Origin: Candidatus Acidiferrales bacterium
GTDB lineage: Bacteria; Acidobacteriota; Terriglobia; Acidiferrales; 2-02-FULL-67-57
DNA: 64,000 nt
Direction of reading: 5' to 3'
Assembly: GCA_965247455.1 (NCBI GenBank)
Contig: CBDFHE010000016.1
Location: forward strand, 183,054 to 247,053
Below the pieces are notes generated by a model. That model saw only the letters and a list, made by a program, of their open reading frames with translations. It searched no databases and was not told the DNA's origin. A program made the position numbers and the translations under genes. Each line of letters begins with the position of its first letter. Positions within the stretch are counted from its first letter, which is position 1. This document shows, piece after piece, positions 16,095 through 52,321 of this stretch.

Positions 16095-16210
16095 CGGTCC
16101 CGGTGGCGGGGGCCCTTCGGCTGTGCTCAGGACAGGCCACCGGGTTGGACGCAGGAGAGTTAGCCGGGGCAAACTGATGATCGTCCAGCCCAGCGGCCCC
16201 AGCCGCTGGG
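16095..16210. repeat. composite REP-like repeat (paralog of 52131-52321) with a 24-bp insert at 16114-16137
   Basis: Hairpins CCCGGTGGC..GCCACCGGG and CCAGCGGC-CCCA-GCCGCTGG. Confidence 0.7.
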
Positions 16211-16238
16211 GCTTAACGGCACTTTGGAAGGGCGCGAC

Positions 16239-16610
16239 TTACTTGCCTCGCTTACTTTCGGGCTTGGGAGTGGGCGCTGCGGGCTGCGGAGGCTCGCCGA
16301 CCGAGTCGGTCAGCCAGTTGAGGTAGTTGGGCGCGCCGTCGATGATGGGCAGGCAGATAACTTCCGGCACCTCGTAACTGTGCGCTTTCTCGACCGCGTG
16401 GCGCACCTGGTCGAAGAGCGAGCGAGAAGTCTTGATGACCAACAACACCTCTTGATCGTCGTTCAGCTTCCCTTCCCAGCGGTAGATAGAGCGGACGGGG
16501 CCGGTAATGTTCACGCAGGCGGCCAAGCGCGCTTCCACCAGAGCGCGGGCAATGCGCTCGGCTTCTTCGCTCGACCCGCAGGTTACTAGCACCACCACTT
16601 TGTCGGTCAT
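16239..16610 (-). CDS. cutA: divalent-cation tolerance protein CutA
   Basis: LAACVN, SIYRWEG, HSYEVPEV. Confidence 0.93.
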   Translation of the reverse strand: MTDKVVVLVTCGSSEEAERIARALVEARLAACVNITGPVRSIYRWEGKLNDDQEVLLVIKTSRSLFDQVRHAVEKAHSYEVPEVICLPIIDGAPNYLNWLTDSVGEPPQPAAPTPKPESKRGK

Positions 16611-16673
16611 CGTTCACCTACCTCGGCGCCTCGCGTTGCCGCTTGGCTGCTCCCACGGTACAATACGCGGTGA

Positions 16674-18089
16674 ATGCCACTCAAGCAGATTCATTTCGGC
16701 ACCAGCGGCTGGCGCGGCATCATCGGTGATGATTTTACCTTCGCGGGGGTGCGCGCCGCTTGCGCTGCCATCGCGGACTGCGTCCGAAAGGAAAATCCCA
16801 AAGATCCGCGACTGATTGTCGGTTACGATACGCGTTTTTACTCGCCTGAGTTTGCCCGCAGCGCCGTCAGCGTGCTGGCCGCGCGCGGCATCCATTCCTA
16901 CTTGTGCAAAGAACCCACGCCCACGCCGGCCATCGCGTGCGAGATTCTGCGCCGGCAAGCCGACGGCGGCATCAACTTCACCGCCAGCCACAACCCTGCC
17001 GACTACAACGGGCTGAAATTCTCCACTGCCGACGGCGCACCGACCTTGCCCCGCGTCACCCAGCAACTGGAAAATTTGGCGGAGAAGCACCTGCGACGCG
17101 GGGTGCCGGAGAACGGCAACGCCGATGCGAGCCGCTGGGAGGAGATTGATCCTCGTGACGGCTACCTGGAAACGTTGGCGGGCAAAGTGGATGTGGCCGC
17201 AATCCAGCAGGCCGAACTGAAAATTGCCTTCGACGCTCTCTACGGCACCAGCGCCGGCTACCTCGACCGCTTCTTGCGCGACCGGGACGTGGAAGTCCAC
17301 GCCCTGCACGGGCAGCGCGACGTGCTGTTCGGTGGGCACCCACCCGAGCCCGGCGACGACCGGCTGGGCGAGCTGCGACAACTGGTGCGTGAGCGCGGCG
17401 CCCACCTGGGCCTCGCCACCGACGGCGACGCTGACCGCTTCGGCATCCTCGACCGCACCGGAAGTTTCATTTCGCCCAATCACATCATTGCGCTGTTGCT
17501 TGACTACTTGCTGGAGACGCGGCCGGAGTGGCCACGTGGCGTGGCGCGGAGCGTGGCTACCACGCACCTGGTTGACGCCGTCGCGCGGCACCACAAGGTG
17601 CCCGTGTACGAGATGCCAGTGGGGTTCAAGTACATCGGCGAGCTCATCAAGCAGAACAAGATCACCATCGGGGGCGAAGAGAGCGCCGGGCTGACCATCT
17701 ACGGGCACGTGCCGGAGAAGGACGGCATCTTGGCCTGCCTGCTGGTGGCGGAGATGGTGGCGCGGCGGGGCGCGGCGCTGGGCGAGCAGCTTCAGGCGCT
17801 GTTCGCCAAGGTGGGCGCGTACTATCCCGTGCGGGTGAACCTGCATCTGTCAGACGAAGGGCAGGCGCGGGTGGCGGCGCGAATCAAGAAAGACCCGGCA
17901 AAGTTCAACGGGCGGCGGGTGGCGCGGGTGGATCGCACCGACGGGTTGAAGCTGCTGTTCGAGGACGACTCCTGGGTGCTGCTGCGGCTGTCGGGCACTG
18001 AGCCGGTGGTGCGCTGCTACTGCGAGGCGCACTCGGAGCAGGAAACGCAGGCCCTGGTGGAAGCGGCGCAGAAGTTCATCGCGGAGTAA
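16674..18089 (+). CDS. phosphoglucomutase/phosphomannomutase
   Basis: FGTSGWRG, TASHNP, DGDADR, GGEESAG, SGTEP. Confidence 0.93.
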   Translation: MPLKQIHFGTSGWRGIIGDDFTFAGVRAACAAIADCVRKENPKDPRLIVGYDTRFYSPEFARSAVSVLAARGIHSYLCKEPTPTPAIACEILRRQADGGINFTASHNPADYNGLKFSTADGAPTLPRVTQQLENLAEKHLRRGVPENGNADASRWEEIDPRDGYLETLAGKVDVAAIQQAELKIAFDALYGTSAGYLDRFLRDRDVEVHALHGQRDVLFGGHPPEPGDDRLGELRQLVRERGAHLGLATDGDADRFGILDRTGSFISPNHIIALLLDYLLETRPEWPRGVARSVATTHLVDAVARHHKVPVYEMPVGFKYIGELIKQNKITIGGEESAGLTIYGHVPEKDGILACLLVAEMVARRGAALGEQLQALFAKVGAYYPVRVNLHLSDEGQARVAARIKKDPAKFNGRRVARVDRTDGLKLLFEDDSWVLLRLSGTEPVVRCYCEAHSEQETQALVEAAQKFIAE

Positions 18090-18094
18090 ACGGG

Positions 18095-18424
18095 ATGCCT
18101 GTCAGGCGAAAACCATCCCCCTGGCGGCGGTTCCTGCTGATTGTGATCGGGCTGGGGTTGTTTGCGCTGGTGATGCACGCCGTCTTCGGGGAGCGCGGCT
18201 ATCTGGGGCTGCGTTCGCAGCGCGGCGAGTACGAGCGTTTGAAGCAAGAAGTGCGGACACTGGAAGAAGAAAACCAACAGTTGAAAAAGGAAATCAAGGC
18301 GCTGAAGTCCGACCCCAGTGCGGTCGAGCGCGTCGCCCGGGAAGAGTTGAAGATGGCCAAGCCGGGCGAAACCGTCATCACCCTGCCGGAAAAGAAAGAC
18401 CTCTCCACTGAGGATAAACCCTAG
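18095..18424 (+). CDS. ftsB: septum formation initiator FtsB/DivIC
   Basis: One TM helix, coiled coil, ERVAREELKMAKPGE. Confidence 0.85.
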   Translation: MPVRRKPSPWRRFLLIVIGLGLFALVMHAVFGERGYLGLRSQRGEYERLKQEVRTLEEENQQLKKEIKALKSDPSAVERVAREELKMAKPGETVITLPEKKDLSTEDKP

Positions 18425-18519
18425 CCGGGTTCCAGCAAGTAAAGATCTCTGTGTTGCTGCAAATTCTTATGGCTAGTAGTCTTGCTACTGCTTGATTTTG
18501 TTTCTCCCGACTTCGTCCG

Positions 18520-18575
18520 CCCCGTGGCAGGTGCCCTTCGGCTTTGCTCAGGACAGGCCACGGGGCTCGGCGTGG
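18520..18575. repeat. REP/MITE hairpin fragment with a 24-bp insert at 18535-18558
   Basis: Matches the reverse complement of about 11903-11933 once the insert is removed. Confidence 0.7.
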
Positions 18576-18586
18576 AAGGAAGGTAG

Positions 18587-19387
18587 TTAGCGGACTAGGC
18601 CGTCGAGGGGGCTGGAGGCGGAGGCGTAGAGCTTGCGGGGGATGCGGCCGGCGAGGTAGGCGTCGCGGCCGGCTTCGACGGCGGCCTTCATGGCGCGGGC
18701 CATCAGCGCTGTGTCTTTTGCTTCGGCGATGGCGGTGTTCATCAGCACGCCGTCGGCGCCCAGTTCCATAGCGATGGTGACGTCGGAGGCGGTGCCGACG
18801 CCGGCGTCCACGATCAACGGGACTTCGGTAATCCGCTCGCGCAGGATACGGATGTTGGCCTGGTTCTGAATCCCCATGCCGGAGCCGATGGGCGCGCCCA
18901 GCGGCATGACGGCGGCGGCCCCGGCGTCAATGAGCTTGCGAGCGGTCACCAGGTCGTCGTTGGTGTAGGGCAGGACGACGAAACCTTCTTTGACCAGAAT
19001 CCGCGTGGCTTCGAGGAGTTGTTCAACGTCGGGGAAGAGCGTCTGCTGGTCGCCGATGACCTCCAGCTTGACCCAGTGGGAGAGGCCGACTTCGCGGCCC
19101 AGCCGGGCGGTGCGCACGGCTTCGTCGGCGGTGTAGCAGCCGGCGGTGTTGGGCAGCAGGAAGAATTTGTCGCGGTCGATGTGGTCAAGCAAGGACTCTT
19201 TGGATTTGTCGGTCAGGTTGACGCGGCGAACGGCGACGGTGACCATCTCAGCACCGCTGGCTTGGTGCGCGCGCACCATTTCTTCCGAGGAACGGTACTT
19301 TCCGGTGCCGATGATGAGGCGGGAGCGGAAGGTCCGGCCGGCGATGGTCAACTGGTCGGTGACAACAGCAGTTTGCGTGGTGGCCAT
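18587..19387 (-). CDS. thiG: thiazole synthase
   Basis: [36 protein letters not shown]. Confidence 0.95.
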
Positions 19388-19439
19388 GACATTCCCCCCC
19401 CTCACACCATTTTAGGGTCAGGAGGGGTGGGAGCGCAAC

Positions 19440-21272
19440 TCACGCGGTCGGGGGTTGGGTTTCCTCGTTGTAGAGGCTGTCGATGAGGGTGCGGAACTCT
19501 TCTTCAATTTTGCGGCGGCAGACTTTCTGGGTGTAGGTGAGCTGACCGTCGGCAAAGGTGAAGTCCTTTTCGAGCAGAGCAAAGCGCTTGATTCGCTCGA
19601 ACTGTGCCAGCCGGCGGTTGACCCTCTCTACCTCGCCCTCCAACAATTCCTGCACACTTGGTTGGGCGGCCAGCTCGGCCGGCGAGTTGGCGGCGACACC
19701 CCGCTGCGCGGCGTAGTGCTCCAGTTGGGTGAAGTTGGGCACGAGCAGCGCGGCGATGTACTTGCGCCGGTCGCCGATTACAACTGCGTTGGCAATGAAG
19801 GAGCTGGCTTTGAGCTGGTTCTCAATCGGTTGCGGGGCGATCATCTTGCCGCCGGCAGTTTTGATGAAGTCTTTCTTGCGGTCGGTAATTGTGAGGAACC
19901 CTTCGTCGTCCAGGAAACCTACGTCACCGGTGTGGAACCAGCCGCCCCGCAGCACCTCGCTGGTTTCCTCTTCCAGCTTGTAGTAGCCCCGCATGATGTT
20001 CGGCCCGCGGGTCAAGATTTCGCCGTCCTCGGCGATCTTCACCTCTACGCCTGGAATTGGTTTTCCCACTGTGCCCAGCTTGGTGGCGCCGGACACGTTC
20101 ACTGCGATTACGGGCGAGGTTTCAGTCAGACCGTAGCCTTCATAAATCGTCAGGCCCATAGCATGGAAAAACTGGTTGAGCGGCTTCGAGAGCGGTGCGC
20201 CGCCGGAGATAAAGAAACGGAAACGTCCCCCCAATTGCCGCCGTAGTTTGCGGTAGATGAGGCGCTCGGCCAAGCGGTATTGCAGTCCGAGCCAGCCGGG
20301 CGGCGTCCGGCCCTGCAAGCGATGCGGCAGCGCCCGCCGGCCGACCTCAAGCGCCCAGTGGAAGAGCTTCTGCCGGAGCGGCGAAGCCTGGCGCACGGTG
20401 CCCATTACGCGCTGGTAGAGCTTCTCAAAGAAGCGCGGCACCACCGCCATCACCGTGGGCCGCAGCTCGCGCAGGTTGTCAGCCACTTTCTCAAAACTCT
20501 CCGCATAGGCGATAGGTGCTCCGCTGGCAAAATAGCCGTAGCAGTTCGTGCGCTCGTAGATGTGGCAGAGGGGCAGCACGGACATAATCAAGTCAGCCTG
20601 CGCGTATCCCAGCCGGCCCATGCAGCCTTTGACGTTGGAGGCCAGGTTGTCATGCGTGAGCAGCACGCCTTTCGGTTTTCCGGTGGTTCCCGAGGTGTAG
20701 ATCAGCGTCGCGATGTCGTCGGGTTTCGCTTGCAGAGCACGGCGGGTGAATTCCTCCATCCGTTCGTGTGGAGCATCTTCCCGCGCGGCCACCTGCCACG
20801 ACACCACGCGCGAATCGGCTTGCGCCCCTACGCTGTCCAGGGGCTGGAACGGGATCACTTTTTTGAGCGCCGGCAGTTGGCTCCACACCTCGCGCACTTT
20901 GGCGAACTGCTCCGCGCCCGAGACGAAGCAGAGACGCGACTCGGAATCCGCCAGGATGTAATGCAGCCGCTCCGGCGACTCAGCAAAATAGAGCGGAACG
21001 TTGACGGCCCCCACGCCCAGGATGGCCAGGTCGGCCATGTGCCACTCGGGGCAGTTCTCGCTGAAGACCGCCACCCGGTCGCCTTTCTGGATTCCGCACT
21101 CTCGCAGAAAGCGCGCCACGGCCGCCACTCGCCGCAGGTAGATGTCAGTGGAGATTGTTTTCCATTCGCCCTCGACCTTGTGCCAGAGCAGGTCGGGCCG
21201 ACTCTGCTTGCAGAGCGTATCGAGGAGGAGTTGGGTCAAGCTGGTGCCTTGCATGGTTGGTTGCGATATCAC
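19440..21272 (-). CDS. long-chain fatty acid--CoA ligase
   Basis: YTSGTTGKPKG, YGLTET, TGD, DRKKD. Confidence 0.9.
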   Translation of the reverse strand: MISQPTMQGTSLTQLLLDTLCKQSRPDLLWHKVEGEWKTISTDIYLRRVAAVARFLRECGIQKGDRVAVFSENCPEWHMADLAILGVGAVNVPLYFAESPERLHYILADSESRLCFVSGAEQFAKVREVWSQLPALKKVIPFQPLDSVGAQADSRVVSWQVAAREDAPHERMEEFTRRALQAKPDDIATLIYTSGTTGKPKGVLLTHDNLASNVKGCMGRLGYAQADLIMSVLPLCHIYERTNCYGYFASGAPIAYAESFEKVADNLRELRPTVMAVVPRFFEKLYQRVMGTVRQASPLRQKLFHWALEVGRRALPHRLQGRTPPGWLGLQYRLAERLIYRKLRRQLGGRFRFFISGGAPLSKPLNQFFHAMGLTIYEGYGLTETSPVIAVNVSGATKLGTVGKPIPGVEVKIAEDGEILTRGPNIMRGYYKLEEETSEVLRGGWFHTGDVGFLDDEGFLTITDRKKDFIKTAGGKMIAPQPIENQLKASSFIANAVVIGDRRKYIAALLVPNFTQLEHYAAQRGVAANSPAELAAQPSVQELLEGEVERVNRRLAQFERIKRFALLEKDFTFADGQLTYTQKVCRRKIEEEFRTLIDSLYNEETQPPTA

Positions 21273-21317
21273 TTCAGCGCAACTTTTTAGCTCTGGCGAA
21301 ATGTACAGTCCTTGCTA

Positions 21318-22466: not shown

Positions 22467-22560
22467 TAGCTCCGCCCTGCACAGAACTTCCCCCAGGATG
22501 ATACCGATTGAACGGCCCCGACGATTTACGGTCCTTTGCACAGAGTGAGTAAGGACACCC

Positions 22561-23490: not shown

Positions 23491-23816
23491 AAATAGAACC
23501 CCCCGTAGTAATTGTTAACCACATATTCAAGGCTTTCATTGGGGAAATGATTGGGTCTCTTACTGCTCCTGCAACTTATCGATTAGGAATAGTGCTGCAT
23601 AACCTGTTTTTGTCAATCCACTTACACTTTCTAGCTTTGTGTGGTGGTTAGTTTTCTGCTGCCGGAATATTTCACGCCCCTTTCTAGAAGTATCTCCTAG
23701 TTCTTCTGTCTTTGTGTAATTTCCTTCCAGTATCGTTCGGGTGATTCGCACGCATTTCCTAATTTCTCTATCAGTCTTGTCTGACAATTTCAAAATCAAA
23801 TCTGGAATGCTATCAA

Positions 23817-25486
23817 CCGGGATTTCCGTTTTGCCTGCCCCTGATGGCACGTTTATACACCCGATCGCCGCCGATCGCACAAAAACTTCGATCGTCGCAC
23901 AATCGCTCAGCTTCAAAGGCCTTCATCTGAGCCCGCGCCGACGTGCGACCGACTGGAACCCCTGCTTTTCGGGCATTTCTCAGACACCGCTCCACACGTG
24001 TGCCCCGTGTCATCGCCGGGCGGGCTTCGTTGCACTTCAGGCCGCGCGTCAGCCTGCCGGCACGGGTAGCGCCCAGATCCTCCGCAGCATGTCGCCGAAC
24101 AGCCGCCGCGTGAGATGCCCTTCCGCCAGCAGAAGCCAGTAGTACCGCGCATGCTTCACCAGCCGGCCCCCAGTTTTCACCAGTCGCTGCTGGAGACTCG
24201 TGAGCGACCAGCGCTTGACCCGCAGCGGAAGGACCAGTCTGCGCCACAAGTTGCCCAGATTGTAGGCCAGGACGCTCAGTTGCAGGCGCACCTCGTTCGC
24301 CCGGAAACGATGGCACGACAGCCGCGTCCAGTGGGTGGCCTGCTTGCCTTCCTTGATCCATTGCTCCGCCGTACCGCGCTTGTTGTAAAACCGCACGACC
24401 GAGCGGCTCGGGAGGGCCATGTTGGTCACGATGAAGCCGACGCGAGGGAACAGCTCACCTTGGTGGTGCTCCACCTTGGCGACGATCCGTCTGGGCGTGG
24501 TCCAGCTCTTGGCCTGATAGCGGAAACTCTGGTAGCGCACCAAGGGCTTGCAGCTCGGCCGTCCCGGCGGACGAAAGAGGATGTCTTCGATTTCCAGCTC
24601 CAAGCTCTTGTTCGCCGGCATGCGAATGGCATAGTCCACGTCGCGCTGCTCGAGCGCGTCGTAGATCTCGGGCTTCGCGAACGCGGCGTCTGCGCGGAAC
24701 GCTACGCGCTTGCCCTCCACCTGCTGCCGGTCAATCTCCGGTACGAGCAGGTCGTCCCAGTCGTCGGCGCTATGCACGTTGCCTGGCCGCAGCGTGGCGG
24801 CGAGGCAGTCCCCATGCTCGGTGAACAGAAACAGCGGGTGGTAGCAGACGGACTCGAAGTGCCCGTTATAGGCGCTCCCTTCCTGCGCCCCATGCACCGG
24901 GCTCTCGCTCGAATCCATGTCGAGCACGATCCGGTCGGCGCGCGTCGCCATCTCGGCCTGTGCAAGCACCTCCCGGTTCACGGCCCTCAACCCGACGAGA
25001 TTCTCCTCGTGGGTCAGCAGCTCTGTCTCGAACCAATGCAGCGTCGATGTCAGCGCCGCACCCCGGTCCCAGCGCTTTGGCGACCCGATGAGACGAAATG
25101 TTGGGTCTGCCGACACGCGCCCCGCGTCGTTGAGATCTTCGTAGCCCGCGAGGCGACTGTAGACCGACTGCCGCAGGAGATCCACCACGCTGAACTGGGT
25201 GTTCATCCCCTGTCGGGAATCGCTCAGGTGCTCGGCGATGAGTGTCTCCAGCCCCAGACGTTCATCCAACTCGCGCACCAGAATGAGGCCAGCGTCAGAA
25301 GTGACGCGCGATCCCTGGAACGCGACTTTCAAGAAGCCGTTGAACGCGAACTGGAATGGCTCGTGTTGTAATTCACCCACCGGGTGTCACCCTCCGTAGT
25401 GTGGTTCCTTACGTCGGAGCCCCAAAACTCAAGGCGCAGCGACTGGTCCTGGCGATACGGTACCACAGCCAAATCGGAAATCCGGG
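23817..25486 (-). mobile_element. IS1380-family element, copy 2 (transposase 24049..25380)
   Basis: 1670 bp; TSD ATCAA; TSDAG, LDMDS, RADAAF and YNKRGTAEQWIKEGK motifs. Confidence 0.95.
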
Positions 25487-26118
25487 ATCAAACGCATTCA
25501 AGGCTTTGGGTCCGAACGTTGGAATAGGCTCGGCCTTGGATGTGAATATTGTCCTTCCCATGATCGGCGTAAGGTCCATCCCTTCATTCTGTGCTGATAT
25601 GCGGTAGAAGAGTCCTAATTTGTCTACCTCCGTTTCCCATATTATGAAACCCAGGTTTACACTGCTGCCATCTATTATTTTTTGCTTCTTCAGGTAGTCT
25701 GATATCAGCCACCCCCGAACCAAGTGTACGAAAGTGCTCAAGAGCCGGATATCCTTTGGGTGGTATTTATTAAAGTCGCCAAAGCCTCTGATTGATAGGT
25801 TTAAGTTATTTCTTGCGATAGCTAGGAACTCCTCGCTTCCAATGAACTTTATGCTTTGTAGGAAGTCAGTTGAAAGCAAATGCTGAGCCGGGGGAGCTAC
25901 ACCAAAGAGATCAACAACGCTAATCTGGTTCTTATGTTTGCTGAATATCGAGAAAACCCTTTCGGTGAACTCGTGAAGATCCCTTGTTTCTTGTGAAGGC
26001 GCAGTTAAGTCCTTCGAAGGGAACACCAAAATCTTTTCTGTACGACCACTAGCCACAAGGCTGTGGAGGAACTCCAGGTATAGTAGGCCAACCAAGGGTA
26101 TTTTTGGCCTTAACCCTA

Positions 26119-27415: not shown

Positions 27416-29861
27416 TCATAGATTGTAATTTTCATCTTTAGAGCACTGCTCGATTTCTCGCATGTAGGTATGATACTTATTCACATATTCATGCCTGAAT
27501 CTTCCAAAATATTTCTGAGCAAACCAAAGCATAGATCCAAAGTAAACCGTTCTGCTGCCAGCCAGATCTAGGAAGAAGCTAAACAGTTTGTCACGGCTTC
27601 GGCAGAATTCTTTCACGTCTCTATCAAATAACCTGCTCTTTCTGTTATCCCCTTTCAGGATCACTTTGTTTCTCTCTATTCGTGCCCGGACTTTTCCAGT
27701 GTGAAATTGTTCCACCACCGAAACCATTCTGTTTCCCTCTAGAAACTCGTATACCGTTTGGATGAATACCGAATTGCAAAAAGTGTTGTCATTCAAACAA
27801 GGAGAGTAGTCCCTTAGGCAGCTTGTTCCCAGAAGCGAGCTATTTCCGAGTTGGTATTCTGCCAACCTGAAGGCGTCATATCGTCCGAGGAGCTTCATTT
27901 CTCTACGATTGAAAAGCTTGAAACCGGGATTTCCGTTTTGCCTGCCCCTGATGGCACGTTTATACACCCGATCGCCGCCGATCGCACAAAAACTTCGATC
28001 GTCGCACAATCGCTCAGCTTCAAAGGCCTTCATCTGAGCCCGCGCCGACGTGCGACCGACTGGAACCCCTGCTTTTCGGGCATTTCTCAGACACCGCTCC
28101 ACACGTGTGCCCCGTGTCATCGCCGGGCGGGCTTCGTTGCACTTCAGGCCGCGCGTCAGCCTGCCGGCACGGGTAGCGCCCAGATCCTCCGCAGCATGTC
28201 GCCGAACAGCCGCCGCGTGAGATGCCCTTCCGCCAGCAGAAGCCAGTAGTACCGCGCATGCTTCACCAGCCGGCCCCCAGTTTTCACCAGTCGCTGCTGG
28301 AGACTCGTGAGCGACCAGCGCTTGACCCGCAGCGGAAGGACCAGTCTGCGCCACAAGTTGCCCAGATTGTAGGCCAGGACGCTCAGTTGCAGGCGCACCT
28401 CGTTCGCCCGGAAACGATGGCACGACAGCCGCGTCCAGTGGGTGGCCTGCTTGCCTTCCTTGATCCATTGCTCCGCCGTACCGCGCTTGTTGTAAAACCG
28501 CACGACCGAGCGGCTCGGGAGGGCCATGTTGGTCACGATGAAGCCGACGCGAGGGAACAGCTCACCTTGGTGGTGCTCCACCTTGGCGACGATCCGTCTG
28601 GGCGTGGTCCAGCTCTTGGCCTGATAGCGGAAACTCTGGTAGCGCACCAAGGGCTTGCAGCTCGGCCGTCCCGGCGGACGAAAGAGGATGTCTTCGATTT
28701 CCAGCTCCAAGCTCTTGTTCGCCGGCATGCGAATGGCATAGTCCACGTCGCGCTGCTCGAGCGCGTCGTAGATCTCGGGCTTCGCGAACGCGGCGTCTGC
28801 GCGGAACGCTACGCGCTTGCCCTCCACCTGCTGCCGGTCAATCTCCGGTACGAGCAGGTCGTCCCAGTCGTCGGCGCTATGCACGTTGCCTGGCCGCAGC
28901 GTGGCGGCGAGGCAGTCCCCATGCTCGGTGAACAGAAACAGCGGGTGGTAGCAGACGGACTCGAAGTGCCCGTTATAGGCGCTCCCTTCCTGCGCCCCAT
29001 GCACCGGGCTCTCGCTCGAATCCATGTCGAGCACGATCCGGTCGGCGCGCGTCGCCATCTCGGCCTGTGCAAGCACCTCCCGGTTCACGGCCCTCAACCC
29101 GACGAGATTCTCCTCGTGGGTCAGCAGCTCTGTCTCGAACCAATGCAGCGTCGATGTCAGCGCCGCACCCCGGTCCCAGCGCTTTGGCGACCCGATGAGA
29201 CGAAATGTTGGGTCTGCCGACACGCGCCCCGCGTCGTTGAGATCTTCGTAGCCCGCGAGGCGACTGTAGACCGACTGCCGCAGGAGATCCACCACGCTGA
29301 ACTGGGTGTTCATCCCCTGTCGGGAATCGCTCAGGTGCTCGGCGATGAGTGTCTCCAGCCCCAGACGTTCATCCAACTCGCGCACCAGAATGAGGCCAGC
29401 GTCAGAAGTGACGCGCGATCCCTGGAACGCGACTTTCAGGAAGCCGTTGAACGCGAACTGGAATGGCTCGTGTTGTAATTCACCCACCGGGTGTCACCCT
29501 CCGTAGTGTGGTTCCTTACGTCGGAGCCCCAAAACTCAAGGCGCAGCGACTGGTCCTGGCGATACGGTACCACAGCCAAATCGGAAATCCGGGTGAAATG
29601 GTACGAATTGATGCCCAAATCCTGATGCAAGTGCCTTTCTATTTTCAGTCTCATTTCCCTAAGTGTTCGGAGAGAGAGGTTGTTTCCTATTAGGATTACG
29701 GAGTCGATGTCCTTCGCAGAATTTTGTTCGCATTCTCGTCGGCCACTTCCGACTAATAAAATATCGATTAGGTGAAGATTTAAAGAGCACAAATAGTCGA
29801 AGACATTTCCGGAAACCCCTCTCCAGAACTCCCGCCGATTGGAGATCGTGTTTTCGCTCAA
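27416..29861 (-). pseudogene. 256-aa Pol-beta-superfamily nucleotidyltransferase-domain ORF split by IS1380
   Basis: ILLVGSG...KDIDSVILI (GS...DxD); frame restored at GINSYHF|KLFNRR. Confidence 0.72.
27924..29593 (-). mobile_element. IS1380-family element, copy 3 (transposase 28156..29487)
   Basis: 1670 bp; TSD TGAAA. Confidence 0.95.
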
Positions 29862-31741: not shown

Positions 31742-31816
31742 GGGGCTAAAGCCCACCGTTCAGAGACTGGCTTTTGGCACGGCTAAAGCCCTGCCTGCGG
31801 CAGGCAGGCGTGCCCT
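31742..31816. repeat. GGGCTAAAGCCC / GGCACGGCTAAAGCCGTGCCC REP doublet with a 19-bp palindromic insert
   Basis: Insert CCTGCCTGCGGCAGGCAGG at 31790-31808. Confidence 0.65.
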
Positions 31817-32632: not shown

Positions 32633-35610
32633 ATGCCAACGCGCCCCTTCCTTCTCGCCCATTGCGGCCAGCTGCTGACGCTGCGCGGCCAGCGCCGCCC
32701 GCGTCGCCGACGCCAACTGGCTCGTTGGGTCTCATCCGCGATGGCGCAGTGCTCATGCAGGAGGGCCGCATTGTGGCCGTCGGCACGACGCGCGCGGTCG
32801 AGCGCCACCCGCTCGCTCGTCGCGCAAACAAATTCACTGCCCGCGAGCTGATCGTCCTGCCGGGTTTTGTCGATTCGCACACGCACTTACTCTTCCCCGC
32901 CAGCCGCGCCGACGAGTACGTGCAGCGCATTGCCGGCCTGTCCCGAGCGAAGTCGAGGGGCGCCAGCTACGAACAGATCGCCCGCCGCGGCGGCGGCATC
33001 CTCTCCACCGTCCGGAAGCTCCGCCGCGCTGACAATCAGAGCTTGCAGCAGCAAGCGCGGCGTTGGCTCGGCGAGTTTGCCACGCACGGCACCACGACGC
33101 TGGAAGCCAAGAGCGGCTACGGACTCAGCCTCGGAAGCGAACTCAAGATGCTGGAAATCCTGCGTCGCCTCAATCGCGAAGGCCCGCTCGAGCTGGTGGC
33201 CACGTTTCTGGGCGCGCACGTGGTGCCACCCGAGTACAAGCGCAAGCCGGATGCCTACCTGGACTTGTTGGTTCGGCGGATGATTCCCGCCGTGGCCGCG
33301 CGCGGGCTGGCCGAGTTCTGCGACATTTTTTGCGACCGCGGCGCCTTCATGCCTACGCAGGCGCGGCTCATCCTGACCGCCGCGCGTGTCTGCGGCATGG
33401 AACCGCGCCTGCACGCCGAGCAGTTGGCCCGCACCGGCGGCGCGCGGCTAGCGGTCCAACTCCACGTCGCCAGCGTGGACCATCTGGACCCGGATTTCCG
33501 ATTTGGCTGTGGTACCGTATCGCCAGGACCAGTCGCTGCGCCTTGAGTTTTGGGGCTCCGACGTAAGGAACCACACTACGGAGGGTGACACCCGGTGGGT
33601 GAATTACAACACGAGCCATTCCAGTTCGCGTTCAACGGCTTCTTGAAAGTCGCGTTCCAGGGATCGCGCGTCACTTCTGACGCTGGCCTCATTCTGGTGC
33701 GCGAGTTGGATGAACGTCTGGGGCTGGAGACACTCATTGCCGAGCACCTGAGCGATTCCCGACAGGGGATGAACACCCAGTTCAGCGTGGTGGATCTCCT
33801 GCGGCAGTCGGTCTACAGTCGCCTCGCGGGCTACGAAGATCTCAACGACGCGGGGCGCGTGTCGGCAGACCCAACATTTCGTCTCATCGGGTCGCCAAAG
33901 CGCTGGGACCGGGGTGCGGCGCTGACATCGACGCTGCATTGGTTCGAGACAGAGCTGCTGACCCACGAGGAGAATCTCGTCGGGTTGAGGGCCGTGAACC
34001 GGGAGGTGCTTGCACAGGCCGAGATGGCGACGCGCGCCGACCGGATCGTGCTCGACATGGATTCGAGCGAGAGCCCGGTGCATGGGGCGCAGGAAGGGAG
34101 CGCCTATAACGGGCACTTCGAGTCCGTCTGCTACCACCCGCTGTTTCTGTTCACCGAGCATGGGGACTGCCTCGCCGCCACGCTGCGGCCAGGCAACGTG
34201 CATAGCGCCGACGACTGGGACGACCTGCTCGTACCGGAGATTGACCGGCAGCAGGTGGAGGGCAAGCGCGTAGCGTTCCGCGCAGACGCCGCGTTCGCGA
34301 AGCCCGAGATCTACGACGCGCTCGAGCAGCGCGACGTGGACTATGCCATTCGCATGCCGGCGAACAAGAGCTTGGAGCTGGAAATCGAAGACATCCTCTT
34401 TCGTCCGCCGGGACGGCCGAGCTGCAAGCCCTTGGTGCGCTACCAGAGTTTCCGCTATCAGGCCAAGAGCTGGACCACGCCCAGACGGATCGTCGCCAAG
34501 GTGGAGAGCACCACCAAGGTGAGCTGTTCCCTCGCGTCGGCTTCATCGTGACCAACATGGCCCTCCCGAGCCGCTCGGTCGTGCGGTTTTACAACAAGCG
34601 CGGTACGGCGGAGCAATGGATCAAGGAAGGCAAGCAGGCCACCCACTGGACGCGGCTGTCGTGCCATCGTTTCCGGGCGAACGAGGTGCGCCTGCAACTG
34701 AGCGTCCTGGCCTACAATCTGGGCAACTTGTGGCGCAGACTGGTCCTTCCGCTGCGGGTCAAGCGCTGGTCGCTCACGAGTCTCCAGCAGCGACTGGTGA
34801 AAACTGGGGGCCGGCTGGTGAAGCATGCGCGGTACTACTGGCTTCTGCTGGCGGAAGGGCATCTCACGCGGCGGCTGTTCGGCGACATGCTGCGGAGGAT
34901 CTGGGCGCTACCCGTGCCGGCAGGCTGACGCGCGGCCTGAAGTGCAACGAAGCCCGCCCGGCGATGACACGGGGCACACGTGTGGAGCGGTGTCTGAGAA
35001 ATGCCCGAAAAGCAGGGGTTCCAGTCGGTCGCACGTCGGCGCGGGCTCAGATGAAGGCCTTTGAAGCTGAGCGATTGTGCGACGATCGAAGTTTTTGTGC
35101 GATCGGCGGCGATCGGGTGTATAAACGTGCCATCAGGGGCAGGCAAAACGGAAATCCCGGCTGGAACGCATCAACCGCGCCGACATTCGGGCACTGGGGG
35201 CCTCCGACACCATCTGCACGCTGCTGCCGGGGGCGGTCTTCCACCTCGGCAAGTCAACCTACGCGCCCGCGCGCGCTCTCATCGATGCTGGTGCTGCCGT
35301 GGCTCTCGCCACCGACTTCAACCCCGGCACCTCGCCCACCGTCTCCATGCCGATGATTCTCTCGCTGGCCTGCACGCAGATGCGGATGTCTCCGGCGGAA
35401 GCCATCGCCGCCGCCACCATCAACGGCGCTCACGCCCTGCGGCGCGCCGACCGCCTGGGCTCGCTCGAAGCTGGCAAGCAGGCCGACCTGTGCGCCTTTG
35501 AGCTTTCCGATTACCGCGAAATCCCGTATTATTTCGGAGTTAATTTTTGTCGGTTGACTATCAAGCGGGGACAGGTGATCCATGACGCCAGCGGGCGATT
35601 CCAAACCTGA
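32633..35610 (+). pseudogene. hutI: imidazolonepropionase, frameshifted near 32720 and split by IS1380
   Basis: PGFVDSHTH, EAKSGYG, HAEQL, VDHLE|RIN, ATDFNPG. Confidence 0.92.
33489..35160 (+). mobile_element. IS1380-family element, copy 4, transposase frameshifted
   Basis: 1672 bp; TSD CTGGA; extra AG near 34506. Confidence 0.94.
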
Positions 35611-39462: not shown

Positions 39463-41935
39463 TCAAAACCCGGCCGTGAGCGAACGCAGATAAGCTTCCC
39501 GGTCGCGCATCTGTTCCTCCGGCACCCGGTTCAGGAACTGTTGCACCCGCGGATGCGAAACCTGTTGGATCTCGTCGGGGGTTCCTAGGGCGATCACCTC
39601 TCCTTCGTGCAGCATGGCGATTCGGTCCGCAATCTGGAAAGCGCTCACCAGCTCGTGCGTCACCACCACCATCGTCAAGGGAAAAGTCTTCTTCAGGTTC
39701 AAGATCAACGCGTCGATGCCCGCAGCGGTGATGGGGTCGAGCCCGGCCGAGGGCTCATCGAAGAGCAGGATCTCGGGATCCATGGCCAGGGCGCGCGCCA
39801 GCCCCGCGCGTTTGCGCATGCCTCCGCTGAGCTGCGCGGGCATGTAGTCGTCAAAACCTGTCAACCCCACCAAGTCGAGCTTCATCCGCACCATGATTTG
39901 AACCCGGATTTCCGATTTGGCTGTGGTACCGTATCGCCAGGACCAGTCGCTGCGCCTTGAGTTTTGGGGCTCCGACGTAAGGAACCACACTACGGAGGGT
40001 GACACCCGGTGGGTGAATTACAACACGAGCCATTCCAGTTCGCGTTCAACGGCTTCTTGAAAGTCGCGTTCCAGGGATCGCGCGTCACTTCTGACGCTGG
40101 CCTCATTCTGGTGCGCGAGTTGGATGAACGTCTGGGGCTGGAGACACTCATCGCCGAGCACCTGAGCGATTCCCGACAGGGGATGAACACCCAGTTCAGC
40201 GTGGTGGATCTCCTGCGGCAGTCGGTCTACAGTCGCCTCGCGGGCTACGAAGATCTCAACGACGCGGGGCGCGTGTCGGCAGACCCAACATTTCGTCTCA
40301 TCGGGTCGCCAAAGCGCTGGGACCGGGGTGCGGCGCTGACATCGACGCTGCATTGGTTCGAGACAGAGCTGCTGACCCACGAGGAGAATCTCGTCGGGTT
40401 GAGGGCCGTGAACCGGGAGGTGCTTGCACAGGCCGAGATGGCGACGCGCGCCGACCGGATCGTGCTCGACATGGATTCGAGCGAGAGCCCGGTGCATGGG
40501 GCGCAGGAAGGGAGCGCCTATAACGGGCACTTCGAGTCCGTCTGCTACCACCCGCTGTTTCTGTTCACCGAGCATGGGGACTGCCTCGCCGCCACGCTGC
40601 GGCCAGGCAACGTGCATAGCGCCGACGACTGGGACGACCTGCTCGTACCGGAGATTGACCGGCAGCAGGTGGAGGGCAAGCGCGTAGCGTTCCGCGCAGA
40701 CGCCGCGTTCGCGAAGCCCGAGATCTACGACGCGCTCGAGCAGCGCGACGTGGACTATGCCATTCGCATGCCGGCGAACAAGAGCTTGGAGCTGGAAATC
40801 GAAGACATCCTCTTTCGTCCGCCGGGACGGCCGAGCTGCAAGCCCTTGGTGCGCTACCAGAGTTTCCGCTATCAGGCCAAGAGCTGGACCACGCCCAGAC
40901 GGATCGTCGCCAAGGTGGAGCACCACCAAGGTGAGCTGTTCCCTCGCGTCGGCTTCATCGTGACCAACATGGCCCTCCCGAGCCGCTCGGTCGTGCGGTT
41001 TTACAACAAGCGCGGTACGGCGGAGCAATGGATCAAGGAAGGCAAGCAGGCCACCCACTGGACGCGGCTGTCGTGCCATCGTTTCCGGGCGAACGAGGTG
41101 CGCCTGCAACTGAGCGTCCTGGCCTACAATCTGGGCAACTTGTGGCGCAGACTGGTCCTTCCGCTGCGGGTCAAGCGCTGGTCGCTCACGAGTCTCCAGC
41201 AGCGACTGGTGAAAACTGGGGGCCGGCTGGTGAAGCATGCGCGGTACTACTGGCTTCTGCTGGCGGAAGGGCATCTCACGCGGCGGCTGTTCGGCGACAT
41301 GCTGCGGAGGATCTGGGCGCTACCCGTGCCGGCAGGCTGACGCGCGGCCTGAAGTGCAACGAAGCCCGCCCGGCGATGACACGGGGCACACGTGTGGAGC
41401 GGTGTCTGAGAAATGCCCGAAAAGCAGGGGTTCCAGTCGGTCGCACGTCGGCGCGGGCTCAGATGAAGGCCTTTGAAGCTGAGCGATTGTGCGACGATCG
41501 AAGTTTTTGTGCGATCGGCGGCGATCGGGTGTATAAACGTGCCATCAGGGGCAGGCAAAACGGAAATCCCGGTTGAATAGTGGATTCCTCCAGCTTGGTC
41601 AGCTCGCGCAGCGGCAAGGCAACGTTGTCAGCCAGCGTCATGGAGCCGAACAGTGCTCCGCTCTGAAACAACACTCCCATCCGGCGCCGCACTCGATTCA
41701 ACTCCTCTTCACTGGCCCGGCAGGTGTCGATCCCGTTGATGAACACGTGCCCCTCGGAGGGCCTCTCCAAGGCCAGGATGTGGCGCAGCAGAGTGCTCTT
41801 GCCGGTACCGCTCGCCCCCAGCAACACCAGGGTTTCCCGGGGGCGGATTTGCAGGTTGATGTTGCTCAGGATGCGCCGCGTCCCGTAGTGGGTAGTGAGA
41901 CCTTCAATGCGGATGACGGCGTCGGTCGCGTCCAT
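39463..41935 (-). pseudogene. MlaF-like ABC ATPase split by IS1380
   Basis: GASGTGKS, then LSGGMRKR and FDEPSAGLD; frame restored at ESTIQ|IMVRMK. Confidence 0.9.
39903..41572 (+). mobile_element. IS1380-family element, copy 5 (transposase 40009..41340)
   Basis: 1670 bp; TSD TTGAA. Confidence 0.95.
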
Positions 41936-43960: not shown

Positions 43961-43990
43961 TTGACCCTTCCAGAGACCGTGTGCTAACTT
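43961..43990 (+). promoter_or_regulatory. putative sigma70 promoter of the gcv operon
   Basis: TTGACC, 18-bp spacer, TAACTT with extended TG. Confidence 0.4.
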
Positions 43991-44020
43991 TCCAGTTCTC
44001 ATATTCCCACGGAGTTTTTC

Positions 44021-45130: not shown

Positions 45131-45178
45131 CCGGAACACTATATTTCCCCGAAGCGAGGAGCAAGCGCGGAACAGATT

Positions 45179-46915: not shown

Positions 46916-46922
46916 GAAGACC

Positions 46923-48452: not shown

Positions 48453-48509
48453 GAATCCTGCGGGCGTTCCTCGGTGTGGAATAACTTTGCGGGCGCAAGG
48501 CAAGCCGAA

Positions 48510-49931
48510 CTAGCGAAGGCGGAAGGACTCAAGCATTTCCTGGAAGGTGCGCCGGTAGCGGCGCTGATCCGATTCGGGCACGATGAAAATCAAATAAATC
48601 AAATCGTCTCCGCGCTGAAGGGTGTAGAGCCAATCGATTTCACGCTCTCCCGGCAACGGAGACTCCCCCATCAGCTTGGTCTGCAACGCGCGTTGCCCCG
48701 CCACCCGAATGCGGCGGCGCGAAACTTCCCGCATGCCAGGGTTGGATTCCTGGAGCCGTTCGAGCAACCAATCGGTTGATTCGTCTAGCAGTGCACGGGG
48801 ATCGTCAAGCTCCACAATGTTGATCATAACTCCGTAGCCGACCGAGTCGCCCTGCCGGGTGGAATAAATCCCTTCGGGTGGAGCCAGAGTCACCCCCGCA
48901 CCGCGCTCGTAGGCTTCCCAATTCTCCGGGTAGTAGATGAGGAAGTCGCGCTCGCGATAGCGGACGAACTGGTCGGAGGGAAGCGTTGGCCGATTGATTT
49001 TCCCGGCTGTTTCCCGGCCTGAATCGCGGCGCCTCTGGCCCGGTTTCGGGGGCGGTGGCAAGCTGCGCACGTGCTCCTGGACCAGGTGAAACTCTTCCGA
49101 GTCCTTGCGCGCGTTTGTCCTCGGCCCGCCCAGCCTTCGGACCTCCTCCATGATGCGCTCCTGGCGGTTCTCCGGATGCGGGTGGCTGGAGAAGAACTCG
49201 ATGGACCGCTTCTTGCTTTGGGCGGCCAGGGTTTCAAAAAAGGCTGCCATTTCGCGCGGGTCGTAGCCGGCGTCGTAGAGGATTTGTGCTCCCAGTATGT
49301 CGGCCTGGGTTTCGGCGCTGCGTGAGTACTTTAGGAAGACGGCGGTGAATCCCACCCCGATGCCGAGCTGGGCGAGCTGGCCGACAATGCCCCCGCCCCC
49401 GCCGAACAGGCCTCCCAGGATTGCCAGAGGAGCCTGGGCGACGGTGGCTTTGGTGAGCTGGTTGGTGCCATGCCGCAAGGCCACGTGGGCGATCTCGTGC
49501 GCCATCACCCCTGCCAGTTGCGCTTCGTTTTCCGCCGCCTCGATGGTGCCCCGGTTCATGTAGAGAAAGCCGCCCGGCAGCGCGAAAGCATTGATGGCCT
49601 CTTGGTTGACTGCTTTGAACTGGTAAGGATAGCGGTGACCGGGTGTGTGGCGAACCAAGCGCGCGCCCAGCCGGTTCAGGTAGTCATTGACCGCCTTGTC
49701 CTTCAGCGCCGGTAATTGTTTTTCGGCGTCCTGGGCCGCCTTCTGGCCGAGCTCGATGTCCTGCTGTTCGCTGAACACGTTCCAGCCCGGCTTTACGCGC
49801 GTCCGCTGGTCGCTTCTTGCGGCCGGCCCGGCATAGAGCGGCAATGCGAGCAGGAGTGCTGCCAGCAGCCAGGCTAGGCTGCGCTTCCCCGCCGGGCAGG
49901 GCGGGCGAGCTTTGTGTTTCAGCGTGCGCAT
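48510..49931 (-). CDS. M48 family metalloprotease with C-terminal extension
   Basis: NAFALPGG, HEIAH, ETQAD, SSHP. Confidence 0.88.
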   Translation of the reverse strand: MRTLKHKARPPCPAGKRSLAWLLAALLLALPLYAGPAARSDQRTRVKPGWNVFSEQQDIELGQKAAQDAEKQLPALKDKAVNDYLNRLGARLVRHTPGHRYPYQFKAVNQEAINAFALPGGFLYMNRGTIEAAENEAQLAGVMAHEIAHVALRHGTNQLTKATVAQAPLAILGGLFGGGGGIVGQLAQLGIGVGFTAVFLKYSRSAETQADILGAQILYDAGYDPREMAAFFETLAAQSKKRSIEFFSSHPHPENRQERIMEEVRRLGGPRTNARKDSEEFHLVQEHVRSLPPPPKPGQRRRDSGRETAGKINRPTLPSDQFVRYRERDFLIYYPENWEAYERGAGVTLAPPEGIYSTRQGDSVGYGVMINIVELDDPRALLDESTDWLLERLQESNPGMREVSRRRIRVAGQRALQTKLMGESPLPGEREIDWLYTLQRGDDLIYLIFIVPESDQRRYRRTFQEMLESFRLR

Positions 49932-50319
49932 TGTCAGATCCCTTCGTCTACGCTCTCTAAGATGACGCACGGCGCTGCAACGTTGCGCCCATTCTGCCAC
50001 AATTTTCCCACAAATTACTTTTGTCATCTTTGGGCCGGCTTCCGTGAGAGATTCGTCCAGGCAAACCACCCCTCTTGTTGAACCCCAGCACGCGGGCGAA
50101 GTTGCTTGATTCCGAAGACAATTTGGCGCTTGCTTTCCCCGGCTTTCCTGCGGTAGTGTGAATCAGCGCTCAATGGCAGGGACAAACACCAACGCAGGTC
50201 AGCAACTCTCGCCGTTTGTCAGAATACATCTCTTACGCTACTCACAGCGCAGTGCCCTGCTCGGCAGGAATGAATCAGTGGCCGTGCGCGAAGCATCCTA
50301 AATCAAAGCGGAGTGCGTT

Positions 50320-51264
50320 ATGTCCTTACAGAAAACTGAGAAGATTTGGCACAACGGAAAATTTATCGAGTGGGACGATGCCACCATCCACATCACCTCG
50401 CACGTCATCAGTTACGGCTCAGCCGTGTTTGAAGGCGTCCGCTGCTATGCCACGCCGCACGGGCCTGCCATTTTCCGCTTGCCGGAGCACGCCCAACGCC
50501 TGCTGAACTCTTGCAAGATTTACCGCATGGACGCGAAGTATTCTCTCGACGAGCTCATGCAGGCGATGGTGGAGCTGGTGCGGGTGAACAAGATGCCCCA
50601 CTGTTACATCCGTCCCATCGTGCTGCGCGGCTACGGTACCGTGGGTGTGGATCCGTCCAAGACCCCCATCGAGGTTTACATTGCCTGCTGGCCCTGGGGC
50701 GGCTACCTGGGCGCCGATTCGGTGGAGAAAGGGGTGGATGTGTGCGTCTCATCCTGGAATCGCATGGCGCCCAACACTCTGCCGGCGATGGCCAAGAGCG
50801 CGGCCAATTATATGAATTCACAACTCATCAAGACGGAAGCCACCATCAACGGCTACGTTGAGGGCATTGCGCTCGATGACCGCGGCTTGGTGAGCGAGGG
50901 CAGCGGGGAGAACATCTTTATCGTCCGCGCGGGCACCGTCATCACCCCGCCGCTGGCCAGCTCCGTCCTGCCCGGCATCACCCGCGATTCCGTCATCACG
51001 CTGTGCCGCGATTTGGAGATTCCCTTCCAGGAGCGGTCCATTCCGCGCGAGGAACTCTATATCGCCGACGAGGTTTTTTTCGTCGGCACCGCCACGGAAA
51101 TCGCGCCCATCCGTTCCATCGACAGGCATCCCATTGCCAACGGTCAACGCGGCCCGGTGACAAAAACACTCCAGGACGAATTCTTTGGCATCCTGCAGGG
51201 CAAGAAGGCAGACCGCCACGGCTGGCTGACCCTGGTCAAACAACCGGTGGCGGCTGCTCGCTGA
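50320..51264 (+). CDS. ilvE: branched-chain amino acid aminotransferase
   Basis: YGSAVFEG, YIRP, EGSGENIF, LPGITR. Confidence 0.94.
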   Translation: MSLQKTEKIWHNGKFIEWDDATIHITSHVISYGSAVFEGVRCYATPHGPAIFRLPEHAQRLLNSCKIYRMDAKYSLDELMQAMVELVRVNKMPHCYIRPIVLRGYGTVGVDPSKTPIEVYIACWPWGGYLGADSVEKGVDVCVSSWNRMAPNTLPAMAKSAANYMNSQLIKTEATINGYVEGIALDDRGLVSEGSGENIFIVRAGTVITPPLASSVLPGITRDSVITLCRDLEIPFQERSIPREELYIADEVFFVGTATEIAPIRSIDRHPIANGQRGPVTKTLQDEFFGILQGKKADRHGWLTLVKQPVAAAR

Positions 51265-51319
51265 ATTTCGGCTGCTGCCTGATTGTGTGGATCCCAATTT
51301 CTGTGATTGAGGAGGCGCG

Positions 51320-52009
51320 ATGAATTACAGCACCACTCAAAAGGCGATTGCGGAGTTCGTTGGCACGCTTGCGCTGATTTTTATTGGCGCGGGCTCCATC
51401 TGCGCCAACCAGTTTCTGGGCGGCGGCGTGGGTTTGGTGGGGATTGCCCTTGCTCACGGCCTCACCATCGCGGTTATGGTCTCCGCCATCGGACACATCT
51501 CCGGCGGGCACATCAACCCGGCCGTCACCATCGGCGCCTGGGCGGCGGGCAAGATTCCGACGCGTGAAGCCTTCATCTACTGGATGGCGCAACTCGCCGG
51601 CGGAGTAGCGGGCGCAGCCTTGCTGGTGTTGGCGTTTGACCCGGCCACGCGTGCCGCCGTCAACCTGGGCACGCCTGCGCTGGCCTCCGGCGTTACTCTG
51701 TTTCAGGGTATCGTGGTTGAGGTGCTGTTGACTTTCTTTCTGGTTTTCACCGTGTTTGCGACTGCGATTGACGACCGGGGCGCGTTCAAGATGGTCGGCG
51801 GCTTCGCCATCGGCATGGTGGTCACGTTCGACATCCTGGCAGGAGGCGCATTGACCGGCGCTTCCATGAATCCGGCGCGGTCGTTCGGGCCGGCTTTGGT
51901 GGCAAACTTTTGGACCGCGCACCACGTCTATTGGGTGGGCCCGCTGGCGGGCGGACTCCTCGCCGGCCTGTTCTACAATGGCGTCTTCCTGCGCCGGCAG
52001 AACTCCTAG
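51320..52009 (+). CDS. MIP family aquaporin
   Basis: Two NPA motifs (GGHINPAVT, SMNPARS). Confidence 0.93.
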   Translation: MNYSTTQKAIAEFVGTLALIFIGAGSICANQFLGGGVGLVGIALAHGLTIAVMVSAIGHISGGHINPAVTIGAWAAGKIPTREAFIYWMAQLAGGVAGAALLVLAFDPATRAAVNLGTPALASGVTLFQGIVVEVLLTFFLVFTVFATAIDDRGAFKMVGGFAIGMVVTFDILAGGALTGASMNPARSFGPALVANFWTAHHVYWVGPLAGGLLAGLFYNGVFLRRQNS

Positions 52010-52130
52010 CCATCCGCGATACCAGATCACAACGAGTTGGTGCACCGATACGTCTGTCCATTAGAGTCCGTACAGGTCGTGGCGCGCAGACGGCCAGAGG
52101 AGTTTTTAAGTCTTGCCGGGGGAGCCCTGA

Positions 52131-52321
52131 GTCCCGGTGGCAGGGGCCCTTCGGCTGTGCTCAGGACAGGCCACCGGGTTGGACGTGGGAGAGAGTGCCT
52201 GAGTCGAACCGCCGAAAAAGATTGATGTTCGTCCTTCTCGAATAGTGTCCAGCCCAGCGGCCCTTCAGGGCGAGCCTTCAGGACGAGCCCCAGCCTGCCT
52301 ACCGCAGGCAAGCCGCTGGGG
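52131..52321. repeat. composite REP-like repeat carrying three micro-inserts
   Basis: Paralog of 16095-16210; inserts at 52148-71, 52262-88 and 52295-313. Confidence 0.7.

Follow-up and report, generated by a model that had tools for sequence, protein, structure and literature searches.

Copies of a 24-nt hairpin unit in the window

The stretch analysed here, referred to as the window (64,000 nt, to which all plain coordinates refer), belongs to a 3.12-Mb Candidatus Acidiferrales genome of 18 contigs (G000, 95% complete) and displays several copies of a 24-nt micro-element, the 24-mer, most of them lodged in small repeated hairpins. Allowing up to 3 mismatches, the 24-mer gives 3 matches in the window and 0 in 100 shuffles, and the three copies that an initial annotation had placed at 16114-16137, 18535-18558 and 52148-52171 are indeed present; with the register established below they lie one base further left, and all carry their four-base tag on the minus strand. 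Copy 1 (16113..16136, minus strand) consists of the tag CCTG and a mismatched hairpin, and interrupts a host hairpin of the repetitive extragenic palindrome (REP) type at 16099..16150 (minus strand) that is formed by a GTCCAA head and a CCCGGTGGC/GCCACCGGG stem. The orthologous site is empty in a genome of the same genus (G001), where the next hairpin holds a 19-nt sister element lacking in G000; the G000 counterpart of that second REP-type hairpin (16189..16210, plus strand) is empty. Copy 2 (18534..18557, minus strand) occupies the host hairpin 18520..18573 (minus strand) between a DivIC-domain gene and thiG, and G001 carries unrelated DNA at this position, with no orthologous counterpart of the site. 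Copy 3 (52147..52170, minus strand), identical to copy 1, resides in the host hairpin 52133..52184 (minus strand), and the corresponding repeat pair of G001 is insert-free, though its left arm differs. The 16.1-kb host hairpin differs from the 18.5-kb one by one base in the loop/arm, which defines two subfamilies of one host repeat.

Removal of the 24-mer restores the host hairpin, as had been proposed, and the uninterrupted version reported on the opposite strand was found at 11912..11933 (plus strand), with its vacant G|C site between 11919 and 11920. The earlier list of three copies was correct as far as it went and missed a fourth family member (32937..32960, plus strand), which is inserted in-frame as eight codons in hutI, in a unique-sequence target outside the repeat hairpins. 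Shorter units accompany these copies. A 19-nt sister element with tag CTTG and a hairpin (52294..52312, minus strand) lies in the REP hairpin neighbouring copy 3, together with tandem 14- and 13-nt tag-plus-minihairpin units (52261..52287, minus strand; register inferred from other copies), and a further 19-nt sister (31790..31808, plus strand) occupies another repeat family.

The remaining features of the window are mainly repeats. The empty hairpin belongs to a 130-bp dispersed twin-hairpin repeat (11885-12014) that has many copies in G001, and both of its hairpins are micro-element targets elsewhere; directly upstream lies a transposase-like remnant (~11395-11884) with no Pfam match, which we take to resemble IS1595. 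A 1.68-kb insertion sequence (IS) encoding a DDE_Tnp_1_4 transposase is found at 23813-25492, 27922-29594, 33489-35163, 39897-41576 and 1-948; several of these copies are identical, one truncates hutI, and G000 contains about 96 copies. Rfam matches in the window are limited to two tRNAs. The window stretch, or part of it, is contained in 20 sequencing runs from 12 studies, which were not used as evidence.

Anatomy, junction and movement of the unit

Recursive parsing of G000 recovered 144 family members with 88 distinct sequences; 122 are outer or single copies, 21 are nested at a second level and 1 at a third, and the unit measures 24 nt in 127 copies and 23 nt in 16. A loose pattern for the head finds 116 sites in G000 against 2 in the shuffled genome. 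On one strand each copy reads as the 4-base tag followed by the hairpin Y-CCY-GAGC-loop-GYC-GA-RGG-R, the tag being CCTG in 69 copies, CTTG in 58 (as in CTTG-CCCTGAGCGNAGYCGAAGGG), TTTA in 12 and another sequence in 5. Counted over copies that are not independent events, the variable stem pair is T-A in 88, C-G in 54, T-G in 2 and C-A in none, while the foot pair is T-G in 66 and C-A in 3. The stem covariation and the asymmetry of the foot thus argue that folding is selected on the tag strand. The loop is of the GNA type in 82 of 127 copies; both C-GNA-G triloops and, in a Y-GA-R context, tandem sheared GA pairs form stable structures in DNA. The sister units, of 19 nt and other lengths, carry the same conserved tags on several unrelated hairpins. 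Neither terminal inverted repeats nor target-site duplications, the hallmarks of miniature inverted-repeat transposable elements, occur in the 24-mer copies or junctions of G000, which agrees with the initial description of an oligonucleotide-sized mobile unit that lacks terminal inverted repeats; its insertion is strand-specific and its orthologous sites can be empty.

The position of the unit at the three window repeat sites slides over a GCC ambiguity. The register is fixed by unambiguous zero-overlap indels against G001, one of 24 nt after G and before T (C17:600716) and one of 23 nt after T and before A (C17:107139), and similarly by A-ending copies in canonical host hairpins. Thus the unit extends from tag to foot, with no target duplication, and the insertion point that had been set 2 nt into the 3' arm, at GC|C, is corrected to G|CC on the plus strand, 1 nt inside that arm. 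The zero-overlap sites also rule out a 3-bp GCC target duplication. The base 5' of the site is G in 128 of the 144 G000 copies and a purine in 142, and G precedes 116 of 130 matches of the cross-phylum loci described below.

Within G000 the host REP family comprises 69 empty sites as well as filled forms, and the same bond accepts 24-mers and 19-mers, further hairpins of 19-24 nt bearing these tags, and stacks of 38-67 nt built by nesting. All 25 24-mers parsed in this family (13 distinct sequences, with six identical inserts in one host subfamily) are found on one strand at one bond, so the fixed register that had been suggested for the host hairpins holds. Targeting by structure survives only as a bias, since 21 of 103 distinct targets lie in a perfect stem of at least 6 bp, compared with 9.2% of intergenic G sites and 5.4% genome-wide; of the 103, 32 fall within the hairpin of another copy or a related one, 12 in the host REP and 59 elsewhere. 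Hairpin targets are a preference and not a requirement, and the constant feature is the G just 5' of the site. A second junction type is present in two genomes (G179 and G198; 35 sites, loci L274-L343), where the net insert, read from host symmetry, is 25 nt, with an extra A or G before the target G at 7 of 8 informative sites. This 25-nt net insertion is a lineage-specific junction type; across phyla the 25-nt and 24-nt junctions number 7 and 6, and a 25-nt tandem unit was observed in locus L193. The tag lies on the G-rich strand 59 times and on the other 55 times, and no replichore pattern that could be used emerged from the GC skew of G198 or G000.

Independent movement is documented by the comparison with G001, which covered 1.16 Mb (overlaps included) of that 3.2-Mb genome and matched about 814 kb of G000. 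The 428 indels of 8-60 nt were reduced to 107 after 321 with poor flanks were dropped, and the sizes of those kept peak at 19 nt (17), 9 nt (15), 24 nt (9) and 23 nt (5). All 17 indels of 19 nt are micro-element units and 10 of the 15 indels of 23, 24 or 48 nt are 24-mer-type units, one of them a tandem-unit gain, with micro-element gains seen on either side. Predicted genes harbour 18 of the 144 copies, and the genes include pyrG, ribD, prmC, ribE, queG, lipB and tilS-like genes, whose names rest on sequence likeness, together with hutI. In pyrG three nested units are in-frame and absent from G001; the ribD copy is in-frame and relatives are empty at the site; ribE contains tandem arrays of units. 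The hutI site of the window lacks the insert in 10 of 11 aligned relatives, while in G002 three units are stacked at this bond of hutI, and the hutI of G009, empty at this site, carries a separate 24-mer about 33 nt downstream. Conversion between repeat copies could explain the differences borne on repeats, but not those in unique genes. The 24-mer is a genuine, independently mobile, recently active and very small insertion element. The 16.1- and 52.1-kb copies, suspected earlier to derive from one event, share an identical insert and the same host subfamily, and repeat conversion is possible there. A de novo empty-site scan, which served only to see families, listed 1893 candidate events, many of them chance or IS-derived.

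The in-frame nested or tandem micro-element stacks in housekeeping genes lie at G000:C18:354891-356615 (L388), C12:47661-48638, C13:81790-84215 and C17:98893-99804, the genes with stacks being CTP synthase and PrmC-, RibD-, RibE- and LipB-like; at the end of the RibD-like gene, a different hairpin family forms a tandem array of about nine 30-nt units.

The pattern is carried by 29 of 201 Acidobacteriota genomes, none of which matches a reversed control. A scan of GTDB genomes returned at least 126 stretches with the unit, and the phyla among the matches listed include Acidobacteriota, Chloroflexota, Bacteroidota, Proteobacteria, Patescibacteria, Cyanobacteria, Nitrospirota, Verrucomicrobiota, Planctomycetota and others, with unit length and ends constant across phyla. 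The identical 24-mer occurs 5 times in a Nostoc genome and 23 times in a Nodularia genome, and 15 of 24 Nostocales loci lie in heptamer (period-7) repeats, against 1.1% of control windows. The 19-mer sister occurs in only 4 of the 201 genomes, 2 of them 24-mer carriers.

Candidate mobilising enzymes and rival routes

Scanning of 14 window open reading frames yielded no mobiliser candidate, as the initial annotation had noted, while G000 as a whole contains 5 matches to Y1 and 13 to GIY-YIG domains. A small GIY-YIG gene at C18:634273 (Pfam GIY-YIG match, frame of ~100-147 aa, no NCBIfam model match) is bracketed on both sides by inverted TGTCA-headed hairpins of the element's mismatch type, which is the layout of Ssn nucleases; a C-terminal motif suggests that the gene may be an Ssn (CDD cd10448). 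The repeats that flank another subfamily of small GIY-YIG genes combine the element's core, CYGAGC-N2-4-GYCGAAG, with varying heads. This core flanks small GIY-YIG genes at 32 of 80 metagenome loci, at 21 of them in both orientations, and at none in the reversed control (about 16 of the core-negative loci look like one redundant sequence), and core-flanked small GIY-YIG genes are also found in Nodularia and two Flavobacteriaceae. Among the 201 Acidobacteriota genomes an Ssn-like gene is matched in 14 of 29 carriers and 10 of 172 non-carriers (odds ratio 15, or 9.5 without family f4 and G000) and TGTCA repeats in 19 of 29 and 19 of 172, in tallies where kinship inflates such associations and single-protein queries may miss homologues. 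The unpublished genome G052 enters them as a non-carrier that has matches to Y1 and TGTCA, and no other statement depends on it.

These data suggest, at a confidence somewhat short of even, that a small Ssn-like GIY-YIG nickase recognising the hairpin moves the 24-mer in trans as single-stranded DNA, and as a best guess we rank this reading ahead of HUH/RAYT chemistry, host-only copying and an RNA route. The non-autonomous unit would consist of the 4-base tag and the mismatched hairpin directly after it, folded as DNA with a GNA triloop and tandem GA pairs. The nuclease would make one cut 5' of the tag and another at the foot of the hairpin, and would nick exposed single-stranded targets. The unit would then be copied or ligated into the nick with the help of host repair enzymes, immediately 3' of a G, on one strand and with no target duplication. 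It most likely has no host function, frame-preserving copies presumably surviving in protein loops. Descent of the element's hairpin from GIY-YIG recognition repeats is well supported. Articles are cited here by PMC accession. Ssn binds a hairpin and cleaves single-stranded DNA a few bases to its 5' side, the exact position varying from one homologue to another (PMC11893778), and the lineage-dependent shift of the junction in G179/G198 (net 25 nt) parallels this behaviour.

Several observations weigh against the GIY-YIG proposal. The CCTG/CTTG/TTTA-tagged 24-mer itself brackets a GIY-YIG gene at 0 of the 80 metagenome loci, and the core-matching GIY-YIG subfamily does not track the element (4/29 carriers vs 14/172 non-carriers, p 0.30). 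The Ssn-like match is missing in 15 of 29 carriers, among them G034, a one-contig, 95% complete genome with 9 copies that has neither an Ssn-like nor a Y1 match, another small GIY-YIG being present there. The association between enzyme and element is itself confounded by kinship. Standard folding (ViennaRNA) rates the element weak (-1.2 kcal/mol, z +0.9); since that program has no model of C-GNA-G triloops or tandem sheared GA pairs, the predicted fold rests on covariation. The GTCA head is absent, and none of the 144 copies matches the published HGTCW-headed SRM pattern, but neither do any of the 79 TGTCA-type repeats of G000, and thus hairpins of this class fall outside the pattern. The sister units share the junction rule on unrelated hairpins, and the common core may mark origin and not mobilisation. 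Finally, the known activity of Ssn is cleavage, not joining.

Other small GIY-YIG genes were considered or observed. Candidates in G000 are C12:75753, C14:134231 and C14:134513. A tRNA-linked subfamily (5/29 carriers vs 6/172 non-carriers) and the C14:134513 type (7/29 vs 6/172) were rejected as mobilisers, most carriers not being covered. Small GIY-YIG genes beside tRNA genes (G000:C18:743356-743859, C4:29320-29823, C12:73467, C12:75753, C17:257275) are accompanied by duplicated tRNA ends interrupted by 19-30-nt hairpins, and another (G000:C17:392220-392429, L060), bounded by a short inverted repeat, lies inside what is presumably a 23S rRNA gene. In the loci L488-L533, L461, L462 and L464, the hairpins on both sides of a small GIY-YIG subfamily read CTGAGC-loop-GTCGAAG and carry GTTCG, AGCTC or GGTC as head in place of GTCA. 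The SRM pattern as published does not include them, and this subfamily is a candidate for new Ssn-like specificities.

A HUH Y1 transposase of the RAYT/TnpA-REP type, a chemistry tentatively proposed at first, is an unlikely vehicle. It would cut and rejoin the single-stranded unit, and the intermediate could be a tiny closed dumbbell in which the tag forms the second loop. Such enzymes are capable of strand transfer, and a tetranucleotide 5' of the hairpin, strand specificity and the lack of target duplication are REP/IS200-like (PMC8266576); moreover, both unit junctions follow G or A, and the host hairpins flank RAYT genes on contig C17 of G000. By our reading of the same source, the TnpA-REP guide rule would have these tags direct cutting at C|A, C|G or T|A, not at G|N, and the tag is not GT[AG]G. 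Y1 matches are found in 23 of 29 carriers and 111 of 172 non-carriers (p 0.14), which is no association, and 6 carriers have none. The host hairpin family is classed as REP because it flanks two Y1 (RAYT-type) genes. The five Y1/RAYT-type genes (G000:C17:105372, C9:28577, C11:21860, C17:347546, C17:472639) are flanked by four REP families, two of the genes by the host family of the 24-mer, and the C17:472639 gene is cut by an IS.

Equally improbable is spread with no dedicated enzyme, by replication or repair template switching at stalled hairpins and gaps with a 1-base G microhomology, with gene conversion spreading filled host repeats. It accommodates the carriers that have none of the tested candidate enzymes, the targeting of hairpins, slippery heptamer arrays and other copies, the tandem arrays of ribE and, through conversion, the six identical inserts in one host subfamily. 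It does not readily account for the constancy of unit length and ends across phyla, the exact inserts in unique coding DNA, the junctions with zero microhomology, or a conserved tag common to several unrelated hairpins.

Movement through an RNA copy and target-primed reverse transcription, a route reportedly proposed for the small dispersed repeats (SDRs) of cyanobacteria, is less probable still. The one-strand T-G wobble fits RNA as well as DNA and the extra purine of the 25-nt junction could be a priming slip, yet between co-directional genes (home-made gene calls) there is no transcription-strand bias, with 39 sense and 43 antisense copies, the loops are GNA triloops and the related Ssn enzyme ignores RNA (PMC11893778). 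The weakest reading, that all copies descend from one or few multiplied filled repeats and the 24-mer never moved by itself, which the initial annotation had named as its own refutation, draws on the identity of some window copies within one host subfamily and is refuted by unique-sequence empty/filled pairs, 103 distinct junctions, empty orthologues, three-level nesting and independent sites in one gene in different genera.

Significance and comparison with known repeats

How non-coding repeats of 20-30 bases spread through bacterial genomes has long been a question. We know of no explanation for the movement of SDRs, and CGTC repeats are described as having no dedicated transposase (PMC3733652). 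For the 24-mer the ends are exactly defined, the target follows a rule, recent empty/filled pairs exist and two lineage-specific junction types are seen; candidate enzymes have been short-listed, and the carriers Nodularia harveyana, Edaphobacter aggregans and Aequorivita sinensis are in culture. Its insertion accounts for unusual stretches of 8, 16 or 24 extra residues in housekeeping proteins encoded by metagenome-assembled genomes. A bolder generalisation, which we consider possible but doubtful, is a cross-phylum class of 13-30-nt tag-plus-hairpin single-stranded DNA micro-transposons moved by single-domain GIY-YIG nucleases and host ligation, which would be the smallest mobile units known. 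If true, it would supply the missing spread route of Ssn/CGTC-type repeats and cyanobacterial SDRs, and would constitute a natural scarless writing of short oligonucleotides after G, essential genes included.

Among known systems, the unit may resemble Helitron ends (hairpin plus CTRR) and IS91 targets. Of the Rickettsia palindromic elements (RPEs), RPE-1 is several times longer than the 24-mer and lineage-specific, whereas the 24-mer is one 8-codon monomer that nests. With RPEs and intragenic REPs it shares the in-frame residence of palindromic repeats in unrelated housekeeping genes (PMC3733652). REP/REPIN-RAYT systems (PMC8266576, PMC6006769, PMC3116915) resemble it in the tetranucleotide at the 5' foot of a one-strand hairpin and in the absence of target duplication. 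In contrast, the 24-mer has no GT[AG]G tag, its junction follows G instead of falling at C|T (or C|A), and its mobile unit is a single 24-nt hairpin and not a doublet, with neither RAYT flanking nor co-occurrence; the five Y1 genes of G000 are flanked by repeats other than the 24-mer, and it is the host hairpins that behave as RAYT-flanking REPs.

The Ssn NTS/SRM repeats (Chenal et al. 2025, PMC11893778) and the CGTC REPs (Di Nocera et al. 2013, PMC3733652) are similar in being single-strand hairpins with a short unpaired 5' head, and the hairpin core of the 24-mer is that of the YGTCA-headed repeats in G000 and around small GIY-YIG genes. The head is CCTG, CTTG or TTTA and not GTCA, whose last three bases are needed for SsnA cutting (PMC11893778), and the unit inserts on its own as a monomer; such single-unit insertion is not reported in the sections available of PMC11893778 or PMC3733652. 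A family figure of the CGTC repeats (PMC3733652) may include the parent hairpin.

The 24-mer is probably one of the already described Nostocales SDRs, given that its identical counterpart in that order lies within heptamer repeats. The SDR4-6 of Nostocaceae (Elhai et al. 2008, Genome Res 18:1484) are reportedly self-nesting hairpins of 21-27 nt that reside in heptamer repeats, and the likeness extends over size class, conserved hairpin with compensatory pairs, self-nesting and heptamer-repeat residence. In HIP1, the insertion point of SDR5 follows the third base, a G (PMC4390886); a HIP1 pattern search of two Nostocales genomes gave only unrelated matches, with 0 of 24 loci in HIP1. A full-text literature search, whose reach did not include Elhai et al. 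2008, found no description of the 24-mer sequence or junction rule. The 24-mer is an SDR-like element with features not found in the searchable papers, namely cross-phylum identity, a tag-plus-hairpin design common to it and the sister units, a two-variant scarless G junction, stacking in core genes and a hairpin shared with small GIY-YIG systems. SDRs are cited as Nostocaceae-limited among cyanobacteria (PMC5861425). In contrast, the 24-mer is distributed over many phyla, lies in-frame in core genes, follows a defined tag and junction rule and displays a GIY-YIG-linked core.

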